Positions 4,877 to 6,239 of a DNA stretch of 60,046 nucleotides are shown piece after piece. The notes beneath the pieces are model-generated. The model was not told the origin of the DNA, did not search any database, and saw nothing but the letters and a program-made list of their open reading frames with translations. Made by a program: the position numbers and the translations under genes. The DNA is from Thermoplasmata archaeon (GTDB lineage: Archaea > Thermoplasmatota > E2 > UBA202 > JdFR-43): NCBI GenBank assembly GCA_021162065.1, contig JAGGZK010000032.1, positions 1 to 60,046 of the forward strand, written 5' to 3'. How positions within the stretch are numbered: position 1 is the stretch's first letter; each line of letters starts with the position of its first letter.

Positions 4877-5110
4877 ATGAAGATAACAATTAAGGATGCG
4901 GAGACGGGTAATAGAATAAGTATGGAGGTGGAGGCAGACAACACGGTGGAGGAGATAATTGAGGAGGCGGCAAATTACTGGAAGAAGAATCCGGGCGCTT
5001 ATGTGGTGCGACTGGGAAAGAAAATTCTCCAGGCAGAGCTCACGGTGGAAGAGGCGATGCTCCAGGAGGGGGATGTGATAGAGCTCATACCCGATCCGGA
5101 AGGGGGTTAA
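4877..5110 (+). CDS. ubiquitin-like beta-grasp protein ending in Gly-Gly
   Basis: 77 aa ending ...IELIPDPEGG then TAA. GGAGG lies about 8 nt upstream of the ATG. ISMEVEADNTVEE resembles ubiquitin ITLEVEPSDTIEN. Gly47-Lys48 sit at the same index as in ubiquitin. Alternating strand/helix pattern is typical of a beta-grasp fold. Confidence 0.75.
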   Translation: MKITIKDAETGNRISMEVEADNTVEEIIEEAANYWKKNPGAYVVRLGKKILQAELTVEEAMLQEGDVIELIPDPEGG

Positions 5111-5629
5111 ATGCCTCTGCCAAGGGACCTGCTTATAAAAAGGATAAAGAATGAACTCAGGGAATGCAGAAGAAATCTTCGCCATCACTTTGTTTTATCA
5201 GACCCGGAAATCAAGAAACTGCCTCTGGAGATAAATGTTACACTGGTGGACACTCCCGGTCCCGTATGGAAGGATGGCAGTGTGGCCCACAAGTACAACC
5301 ATAAACTCAAGATAATAATCACAGAGGAGTATCCATATCAGACTCCAATAGTCAGATGGCGAAGCAGCATCTTTCATCCAAACATAATGCCACCGGAGGA
5401 CGGAGGATATGTCTGCACCAAACTCTTGGACGGATGGAATTTCCGCTCCACTCTCCTTACCTTCATAAAGGGACTGGAGATACTTCTTGCCAATCCAAAC
5501 CCGGATAGTCCTTTCGAAACAGATTCCTGTACCAGAGCCGCGGAATATTTTCATAAACATCCTTATCAGGTGCCGAAGCAGACAAGGAAAAGGCCCATCA
5601 TCATAGAGGAAGATGGTCAGGATAAATGA
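5111..5629 (+). CDS. ubiquitin-conjugating enzyme (E2/UBC-fold) homologue
   Basis: The ATG immediately follows the Ubl stop (TAAATG). Contains RIKNELRE, EEYPYQTPIVRW, IFHPNIMPPEDGGYVC(102)TKLLDGWN and LANPNPDSPFE, which is the canonical HPN...Cys...W...PNPxxP layout of E2 enzymes. The Cys102 codon is at 5414-5416. Confidence 0.85.
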   Translation: MPLPRDLLIKRIKNELRECRRNLRHHFVLSDPEIKKLPLEINVTLVDTPGPVWKDGSVAHKYNHKLKIIITEEYPYQTPIVRWRSSIFHPNIMPPEDGGYVCTKLLDGWNFRSTLLTFIKGLEILLANPNPDSPFETDSCTRAAEYFHKHPYQVPKQTRKRPIIIEEDGQDK

Positions 5630-6239
5630 GGAGATAAGGAAGGAATATACCATAAAGCCCCCGCCCTCCCACCTGATTTTTGAGTATGGGAGGGACAGCA
5701 TGGAAGAATATATGGAAAAACACGGGTATGCCATGGAATCAAGTTATGCAAGGAGAAGCGAGGAGACAAAGGAAAGGGTGGAGGCGATTAAGAGAGAGGG
5801 GCTGGACTTTTATATAAAGGAGGAGGCGATGGAAAAGATACTCAGGCATTGCTATGAGCAGGCATTGAAAGGGAGAGAGAGCATGGGCTTTCTGGTGGGA
5901 GATGTAAGGAAGTGGAATGATGTATATGCTGTTGTATACGACATCGCCACCGCGTCTCTGGAGGCATCCTCCGTTTATGTGAGATTTCACAGAGAAGCCT
6001 TTGAGGAATTGTTTGATGCGCTGGATGAGATTGAGTATGAGTATGTCCTTCTTGGATGGTATCATTCCCACCTGGGCTATTCCAGTTTCATGTCATCCAT
6101 AGATATGGAAACGCAGAGAACATATTTCACCCAACCATATCATGCGGCTCTGGTTGTTGATCCCATAACCAGGGAAATGAAGGCCTTCAGGATAATAAAT
6201 GAAGAATGCGTTGAGATACCCTACGCCATATTCAGATGA
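5613..6239 (+). CDS. JAMM/MPN+ metalloisopeptidase (Rpn11/JAB-type)
   Basis: Complete MPN+ signature: Glu89 in RESMGFLVG, then H151-S-H153-LGYSSFM-S161-SI-D164 (HxHx7Sx2D; cat tcc cac at 6063-6071). The start overlaps the E2 gene by 17 nt and has GAGGA upstream. About 65 N-terminal residues precede the MPN core. Confidence 0.85.
   Translation: MVRINEEIRKEYTIKPPPSHLIFEYGRDSMEEYMEKHGYAMESSYARRSEETKERVEAIKREGLDFYIKEEAMEKILRHCYEQALKGRESMGFLVGDVRKWNDVYAVVYDIATASLEASSVYVRFHREAFEELFDALDEIEYEYVLLGWYHSHLGYSSFMSSIDMETQRTYFTQPYHAALVVDPITREMKAFRIINEECVEIPYAIFR

Follow-up and report, generated by a model that had tools for sequence, protein, structure and literature searches.

A 60-kb stretch of DNA from an uncultured Thermoplasmatota archaeon of sediment (the whole of this stretch is called the window below) carries three tightly packed plus-strand genes at positions 4877-6239. 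They encode a ubiquitin-like protein (Ubl), a ubiquitin-conjugating enzyme (E2) and a JAMM (JAB) metalloprotease. A hallmark of eukaryotes is the use of a true E2 in ubiquitin tagging. The three genes probably provide the core, for conjugation and for deconjugation, of a eukaryote-type system of protein modification by the Ubl, inherited vertically across Thermoplasmatota as E1-Ubl-E2-JAB, where E1 denotes the activating enzyme.

The coordinates and junctions of the cassette are based on open reading frame (ORF) calls and on direct reading of the sequence (Table 1). At the junction between Ubl and E2 the sequence reads GGT TAA ATG, with no spacer. The stop codon of E2 (TGA, 5627-5629) lies inside the JAB gene, which starts with the ATG at 5613 and thus overlaps E2 by 17 nt. 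Downstream, lysK (6232-7785, minus strand) converges on JAB with an 8-nt overlap. The TTTAAAT motif in front of the cassette, at 4840-4846, overlaps the stop codon of an upstream ORF (4383-4844), and the cassette could instead share a transcript with this ORF, to judge from the arrangement of the letters.

The Ubl matches the Pfam ubiquitin model (PF00240) with 27.0 bits, a small margin above the gathering cut-off of 25.4 bits, and 17 of the 29 members of its family match this model at E<1e-3. Its AlphaFold2 (AF2) model, with a predicted local distance difference test score (pLDDT) of 93.5, has the topology bb-a-bb-b (b, strand; a, helix). The 50 best Foldseek matches of this model are ubiquitin, NEDD8 and Caldiarchaeum ubiquitin, with TM-scores of 0.82-0.91 and root mean square deviations of 1.1-3 Å; Caldiarchaeum ubiquitin (6fnn_C) ranks second among them (TM-score 0.89). 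Very low E-values against polyubiquitin in a search of PDB sequences were set aside as repeat inflation, the similarity being ∼9 bits per repeat. The C-terminus PDPEGG, including G76 and G77, is invariant among 29 homologues, and the Ubl is predicted to be made mature, with a C-terminal Gly-Gly as for conjugation. Across 82 loci the protein ends in GG at 60, and at the other 22 it continues for 1-8 residues beyond GG. An invariant Lys48 is located in the loop that bears K48 in ubiquitin; the hidden Markov model (HMM) alignment puts the two lysines one residue apart.

The E2 scores 53.3 bits against the Pfam model UQ_con (PF00179; gathering cut-off 27 bits). Its motifs comprise F88-H89-P90-N91, C102, W109 and PNPDSP at 129-134, followed by a disordered basic/acidic tail (158-172). 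HPN89-91, C102, W109 and PNP129-131 are invariant among 32 homologues that are 50-78% identical to the E2 of the window. A profile built from these homologues finds Rad6/UBE2A and Ubc13 in the PDB at E ∼1e-13, with HPN and the cysteine aligned with those of UBE2A. The AF2 model (pLDDT 82.8, predicted TM-score 0.75) is closest in Foldseek to UBE2K, UBC9, UBE2D and Rad6, with a probability of 1.0 and TM-scores of 0.55-0.72. Both the motifs and the model identify the protein as a predicted canonical HPN-type UBC, with C102 as the predicted catalytic residue. Besides C102, two further cysteines are conserved in the family, C140 invariantly and C19 nearly so; they are not typical among eukaryotic E2s and may be a redox or metal site.

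The third product reaches 47.1 bits against Pfam JAB (PF01398; gathering cut-off 22.5 bits). Its metal-binding and catalytic motif (E89, H151-S-H153, S161 and D164) aligns with that of Rpn11 and is invariant among 28 homologues. The nearest PDB sequences are Rpn11 (2e-11), the Rpn11-like protein of Caldiarchaeum (6fjv, 3e-10) and AMSH-LP (5e-9), with CSN5 also near; scores stay below the cut-off for Prok-JAB (19 bits versus 25) and for the desampylase model NF041370 (32 bits versus 130). An N-terminal extension of ∼65 aa (residues 1-65, window 5613-5810) precedes the MPN core. Its length varies across the family, its Pro-Pro pair P17-P18 is invariant and its basic start is conserved; it may be a docking segment. 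Given the operon linkage and the Ubl tails at 22 of the 82 loci, the JAMM would act on the Ubl as an isopeptidase or precursor protease.

An earlier sequence-only reading of this DNA had already named the three products as a Ubl, a UBC-type E2 and an MPN+ JAMM. Profile scores above the Pfam gathering cut-offs for all three bear out this annotation, and its gene coordinates, the GGAGG, the two junctions and the listed residues of the E2 (HPN89-91, C102, W109, PNPDSP) and the JAMM (E89, HxH151-153, S161, D164) are all found in the sequence as it gave them. The AlphaFold and Foldseek comparisons agree with it at the level of prediction (a beta-grasp ubiquitin fold for the Ubl, a UBC fold for the E2), as does the invariance of C102 and HPN.

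The fourth component became visible in a survey of 97 sequences (the window and 96 other loci), in which ORFs were called and searched with iterated profiles. Ubl, E2 and JAB are linked in 94 of the 97. More distant relatives have a gene for a ThiF-family E1 (∼260 aa) directly upstream, and most loci show the order E1-Ubl-E2-JAB. On an E2 tree of 80 loci, E1 is adjacent at 52, lies 1.2-4.1 kb upstream at 7, is absent at 13 and is undeterminable at 8; the upstream sequence available at the 13 loci is at least 10 kb in some and less in others. Apart from a few separate cases, the loci without E1 make up one coherent clade, to which the window belongs. In close outgroups, E1-Ubl-E2-JAB is succeeded by a convergent lysK, which is the window's own downstream neighbour. 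Therefore, four genes beside lysK are the ancestral arrangement. At one locus (L015), an IS66 transposase is inserted between E1 and Ubl.

The operon-type E1 has 256-276 aa in most lineages. It displays a Rossmann motif GAGALGNE, the motifs SNLxRC and GCLDN and a zinc site CxxC...CPxH. The cysteine in R-x-SCTG is invariant; it lies ∼16 residues after CxxC, where ThiF/MoeB have their crossover-loop cysteine. The protein ends a few residues past CPxH and thus has neither a Cys domain nor a ubiquitin-fold domain (UFD). Against the active adenylation domains of Uba1, UBA6, UBA7, UBA3 and SAE2 its profile reaches 105-127 bits, as compared with 75 bits for ThiF/MoeB and 68 bits for UBA5. Its sequence thus identifies the E1 as a predicted eukaryote-like adenylation core in a minimal package.

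Within the 60-kb window no E1 is found, the best tblastn match with two operon E1s as queries having E=0.7. In a scan of metagenomes, no contig from sample 3300017593, which holds the window species, is among the matches listed. Three candidates were rejected: P0123 and P0241 belong to other lineages and lie within four-gene operons, and P0128, also from another lineage, is not followed by a Ubl in the short stretch to the end of its contig. In three metagenome-assembled genomes (MAGs) of the window's clade, the E1 gene is encoded on a contig other than that of the cassette (Table 1). One of them contains the closest relative of the window, with an E2 that is 91% identical (L017). These E1s (P0150, P0133 and P0136) keep every conserved motif, and their clade is sister to the operon E1s of two loci (L028 and L031), mirroring the E2 tree. 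Intact motifs and mirrored trees together indicate that the separately encoded E1s are the cognate enzymes, relocated. On the basis of these three MAGs, the E1 of the window's clade is relocated, not lost. The description of the cassette as stripped to three genes, made in the sequence-only reading, therefore stands for the three linked genes and for the lack of E1 in the window, but does not hold for the phylum, where the operon has four genes. In two unrelated lineages the E1 gene adjoins cdc6/orc1 (L015:6056-9698; L097:6001-8048), a position that may be near a replication origin.

The cassette is widespread in the phylum. More than 150 database relatives of the E2 are 50-78% identical to it, and those with names are all from Thermoplasmata, Thermoplasmatales, Methanomassiliicoccales or ‘Euryarchaeota RBG’ MAGs. 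Among GTDB species representatives, 330 encode a relative, of which the best 80 all belong to Thermoplasmatota. Contigs from one NCBI MAG assembly and from metagenome assemblies of JGI and ENA also hold the cassette, with a 100% identical E2 and the same surrounding gene order. The fetched loci have a single copy each, one of them showing a tandem pair of E2 ORFs. In the E1-less clade, purifying selection acts on each of the three genes, with a within-species dN/dS of 0-0.27; between species dN is 0.03-0.31 and dS is saturated. The housekeeping setting that had been read from the window (hisS, lysRS, ribosomal protein genes) extends far beyond it: hisS, lysK, the group rpoN-S9-L13-L18e, pheS and a class-I tRNA synthetase (tRNA-synt_1b, Trp/Tyr type) are kept as neighbours across orders. 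Two homologues have odd taxon labels, a Ubl (P0293, ‘Nitrospiraceae bacterium’) and an E1 (P0200, ‘Candidatus Thorarchaeota archaeon’), which are probably binning errors, horizontal transfer being the less likely source.

The proposed cascade is as follows. The Ubl (77 aa) would be produced with a free Gly-Gly end. A small ThiF-type E1, encoded elsewhere in this lineage, would adenylate Gly77 of the Ubl, with a thioester on the SCTG cysteine as a probable intermediate, and the Ubl would then be handed as a thioester to C102 of the E2. The E2 would move it onto target lysines, either free of any ligase (E3) or with an E3 unlinked to the operon. The Rpn11/AMSH-like JAMM would strip the Ubl from its targets and, in relatives with 1-8 residues past GG, would also trim the Ubl precursor. 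All chemical steps and the targets of this cascade are ones that we infer. The most likely role would be housekeeping protein regulation or quality control, possibly with targeting to the proteasome or Cdc48.

Several observations weigh against such a system. The sequence similarity between the Ubl and ubiquitin is modest (27 bits in Pfam; ∼20 bits for mono-ubiquitin against the family profile), so that the fold evidence carries the identification of the Ubl. The E1 is devoid of the UFD and of the separate Cys domain that canonical E1s use for recruiting and charging E2s. No RING E3 is seen, a regular expression giving 0 matches among the window's ORFs and among 4321 ORFs lying no more than 6 kb from E2 at 85 loci, although such an expression may miss divergent RINGs. 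Finally, the window species' own E1 was found neither in the 60-kb window nor in the metagenome scan. The more ambitious proposition, that Thermoplasmatota possess an ancient, vertically inherited eukaryote-type ubiquitin system using a minimal E1 without UFD and Cys domain and no E3, is a tentative one, possible rather than probable.

Three other explanations deserve attention. In the first, the cassette belongs to a Bil-type antiviral conjugation system, in which the Ubl is put on virus proteins at infection and is processed or recycled by JAB. This is very unlikely, even though the four component types are those of BilABCD, the order Ubl-E2-JAB resembles that of Bil, and the JAB gives weak matches in PADLOC (JAB model, 1.2e-6; BilC, 4.8e-5). 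Neither the E2 nor the Ubl has a significant PADLOC match: the best one of the E2 (E=0.0028) covers 27 residues of a generic E1-E2 model, and the Ubl matches no Bil or other Ubl model. Moreover, the E2 is an HPN-type UBC (PF00179) and not a CEHH-type BilB (PMC11354881). The locus is phylum-wide and syntenic with lysK and with genes for ribosomal proteins and tRNA synthetases across orders; no defence genes are seen in its neighbourhood and no viral copies in a scan of IMG/VR. The E1 tree matches the E2 tree, which argues for vertical descent. Collectively, the housekeeping context, the conserved synteny, the purifying selection, the absence of copies in the viral scan and the lack of a nearby RING E3 in the regular-expression search point to a vertically inherited conjugation system and not to a Bil-type defence island, and the antiviral option entertained in the sequence-only reading is left without support.

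In the second, the main task of the Ubl is to carry sulfur, as MoaD, ThiS or the SAMPs do, in tRNA thiolation or cofactor synthesis; the ThiF-type E1 would activate it, E2 and JAB would have accessory or regulatory parts, and there would be no general tagging. The minimal ThiF fold of the E1, without Cys domain or UFD, speaks for it, as do weak matches of the Ubl to ThiS PF02597 (19 bits) and TIGR01687 moaD_arch (17 bits) and the fact that archaeal SAMPs serve both functions. Yet these scores lie under the respective cut-offs of 22.5 and 49.5 bits, for MoaD far under, and TIGR01683 thiS gives 14 bits (cut-off 37). The best structural matches of the Ubl are ubiquitin, NEDD8 and Caldiarchaeum ubiquitin; the E1 shows no rhodanese domain and scores far higher with Uba1, UBA3 and SAE2 than with ThiF, MoeB and Uba4; and an E2 with intact catalytic residues accompanies the Ubl, together with the JAMM, in essentially every genome. 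Sulfur transfer as the main task is thus highly improbable. In the third, the window's clade is truly E1-less, its cassette being a decaying remnant, a borrower of an unrelated E1 (e.g. a UbaA/MoeB homologue) or a system without activation; this fits with the missing E1 in the 60-kb window and in the upstream stretches available at the 13 loci, and with the E1 of the window species not being located, but is scarcely credible in view of the orthologous E1s with intact motifs on other contigs of three same-clade MAGs, including that of the closest relative, of their co-divergence with the cassette, and of three intact genes under strong purifying selection.

Some neighbouring genes merit description. 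The ORF upstream of the cassette occupies the slot taken by E1 in relatives. It matches no Pfam family above the cut-off and gives a weak match to the Ig-like FixG_C. A jackhmmer search retrieves 8 sequences, namely that of the window, those of six contigs (L001-L006) that have the same cassette with a 100% identical E2, and one match in L043, a distant relative, at an unrelated position and on the opposite strand. This ORF is probably not a part of the conjugation system. Clustering of the neighbouring genes reveals no conserved cytosolic fifth gene. Directly 3' of JAB and in its orientation, 39 of 85 loci encode a protein of ∼380 aa that has a signal or transmembrane segment at its N-terminus and no Pfam match; in those clades it may be a fifth member of the operon or a mere conserved neighbour.

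Further afield, an integrase-like gene (L001:15950-16855; weak rve and HTH_28 Pfam matches) stands between a radical-SAM gene and a gene for a 493-aa protein; it is missing from the window at 10960-11065, which makes it an insertion polymorphism with respect to L001, a contig with identical E2. To the left of the window, L001:3387-5609 encodes a Roadblock/LC7 protein, a small GTPase of the Ras/Arf type that is fused to a KaiC-like ATPase domain, and another KaiC-like ATPase whose gene extends with its 3' end into the window (153-395), one more ‘eukaryote-flavoured’ gene set of the genome. The window also encodes two gingipain-like C25 peptidases, which fit with a protein-degrading lifestyle, two large PAS/GAF histidine kinases and one Rad50-like SMC ATPase.

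Table 1. Features of the cassette, of its surroundings and of the separately encoded E1 genes (positions refer to the window unless a contig or locus is named)
Feature	Position	Strand	Description	Basis or remark
Ubl	4877-5110	+	77 aa, ends ...PDPEGG-stop	ORF listing, Pfam, AF2 model
E2	5111-5629	+	172 aa, UBC fold	ORF listing, Pfam, AF2 model
JAMM/JAB	5613-6239	+	208 aa, Rpn11/AMSH-like MPN+ metalloprotease	ORF listing, Pfam, PDB sequence matches
GGAGG, Shine-Dalgarno-like	4869-4873	+	3 nt before Ubl ATG	read from sequence; putative function
TTTAAAT, possible archaeal TATA box	4840-4846	+	∼34 nt before Ubl ATG	sequence only
Upstream ORF	4383-4844	+	153 aa, signal-peptide-like N-terminus MRRLLLIMLAAVLLVPPLPIMKA...	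occupies E1 slot of relatives
E1 P0150, GCA_014361195.1	contig 2 (L097)		E1 neighbours pyrF, cdc6	cassette on contig 7 (L013)
E1 P0133, GCA_964503915.1	other contig (L101)		E1 neighbour pyrF	cassette on L030
E1 P0136, GCA_964632955.1	contig 27 (L193)		E1 neighbours nucleotidyltransferase gene, GNAT gene	cassette on L017
∼380-aa protein (examples)	L057:11214-12359; L007:11267-12472	same as JAB	directly 3' of JAB	plus 37 other loci, not window
Peptidase, kinase and SMC genes (jointly)	26580-28664; 35579-37576; 31901-34258; 42762-46412; 51727-54126	-; -; -; -; +	C25 peptidases, histidine kinases, SMC ATPase	

Some parts of this predicted conjugation system are not new to databases. Public annotations name some family members ‘ubiquitin-conjugating enzyme E2’, and a clade labelled ‘Ca. 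Thermoplasmatota E2’ is placed at the base of the archaeal tree of E2s and ubiquitin E2 variants (UEVs) in a preprint (bioRxiv 10.1101/2023.07.25.550441). In full-text searches of the literature, no description of a Thermoplasmatota ubiquitin operon, of its E1, of its distribution or of an experiment was found, and the papers specific to these lineages never mention ubiquitin. Thus, the parts are recognisable and partly visible in databases, and it is for the operon, its E1 and its distribution that no description was found. What the sequence-only reading called an uncharacterised system deserves this name as an operon, but not as regards the UBC proteins, already annotated in Thermoplasmatota, and the E2 clade of that one preprint.

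This predicted system is conserved, RING-less and equipped with a very small E1, and hundreds of species of Thermoplasmatota (abundant archaea of sediments and guts) have it. Being much simpler, it would help in studying how an E2 is charged when the E1 has no UFD, and how the E2 selects its targets when there is no E3. To our knowledge, the Caldiarchaeum operon is the only one for which archaeal tagging of the ubiquitin type with an E2 has been shown to function, and such tagging is discussed mostly for Asgard and TACK archaea. If the tentative proposition of an ancient, vertically inherited system with a minimal E1 and no E3 is right, Thermoplasmatota would offer a living example of the simplest cascade from E1 to E2 to lysine, which would place canonical machinery of the Ub/UBC/Rpn11 type outside the TACK and Asgard lineages. 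This would imply either an origin of ubiquitin deeper in archaeal history than usually assumed or an old transfer between lineages; in any case it is a new data point on where and when the ubiquitin machinery arose. Protein regulation in this phylum, which is mostly uncultured and of ecological importance, might also have a further level that has gone unrecognised. The relocation of E1 in one clade suggests that the E2/Ubl/deubiquitinase core is the unit kept together by selection, and advises looking for an E1 elsewhere in the genome before calling ‘E1-less’ cassettes minimal.

Among known systems, the sampylation of Haloferax (SAMP/UbaA/HvJAMM1) has no E2; its SAMPs are of the MoaD/ThiS type and have a dual function. 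Both sampylation and the Thermoplasmatota system have an archaeal Ubl with GG at its end, a ThiF-type E1 of minimal size whose cysteine lies in a loop, and a JAMM, which in Haloferax is a deconjugase. With its E2 and with a Ubl of other than MoaD type, the Thermoplasmatota system does not count as sampylation; likewise, the JAMM scores far under the desampylase cut-off.

The bacterial anti-phage system BilABCD consists of a Ubl, an E2, a JAB deubiquitinase and an E1; the JAB pre-processes or recycles the Ubl, and there is no E3 (PMC10557695). The same four functional classes occur in Thermoplasmatota, where no E3 was found in or near the operon either. In contrast, Bil is sporadic and mobile with an E2 of the CEHH type, whereas the present E2 is an HPN-type UBC, vertically inherited among housekeeping genes.

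Archaeal Cluster III comprises E1s without a ubiquitin-like domain at the C-terminus and E2s that group with bacterial E2-like proteins (Hennell James 2017, PMC5654768), and related Ub/E1/E2/(RING)/JAB operons exist in bacteria (Iyer 2006, PMC1779556). As in these operons, Ubl, E1, E2 and JAB are encoded together in Thermoplasmatota and the E1 has no C-terminal ubiquitin-like domain. Unlike in Cluster III, the E2 fits the eukaryotic PF00179 model and eukaryotic E2 structures, and the E1 profile is nearest to Uba1, UBA3 and SAE2. The text of the 2017 paper, as distinct from the species drawn in its Supplementary Fig. 1, names no Thermoplasmata or Euryarchaeota.

Operons of Caldiarchaeum subterraneum (Aigarchaeota) and of Asgard archaea encode ubiquitin, an E1-like and an E2-like protein, a small RING finger protein and Rpn11 (Nunoura 2011, PMC3082918; Hennell James 2017, PMC5654768). 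In Caldiarchaeum, the pro-ubiquitin has a 9-aa propeptide that is trimmed by Rpn11 (PMC5654768), and the E1 is modelled with a Cys domain and, at its C-terminus, a ubiquitin-like domain (PMC5654768 supplement). The Thermoplasmatota operon differs from these by the RING E3, none having been found in or near it by regular expression, and by an E1 of ∼260 aa without a separate Cys domain or C-terminal ubiquitin-like domain, which in the window's clade is unlinked to the operon. The JAMM gene is co-directional with E2 and overlaps it here, whereas it is divergent in Caldiarchaeum, and the host phylum is Thermoplasmatota instead of a TACK or Asgard lineage. What it has in common with the Caldiarchaeum and Asgard operons is the joint encoding of a GG-ended modifier of ubiquitin fold, a canonical UBC E2 and an Rpn11-like JAMM and, with Caldiarchaeum, the pro-Ubl tails carried by some Thermoplasmatota relatives.

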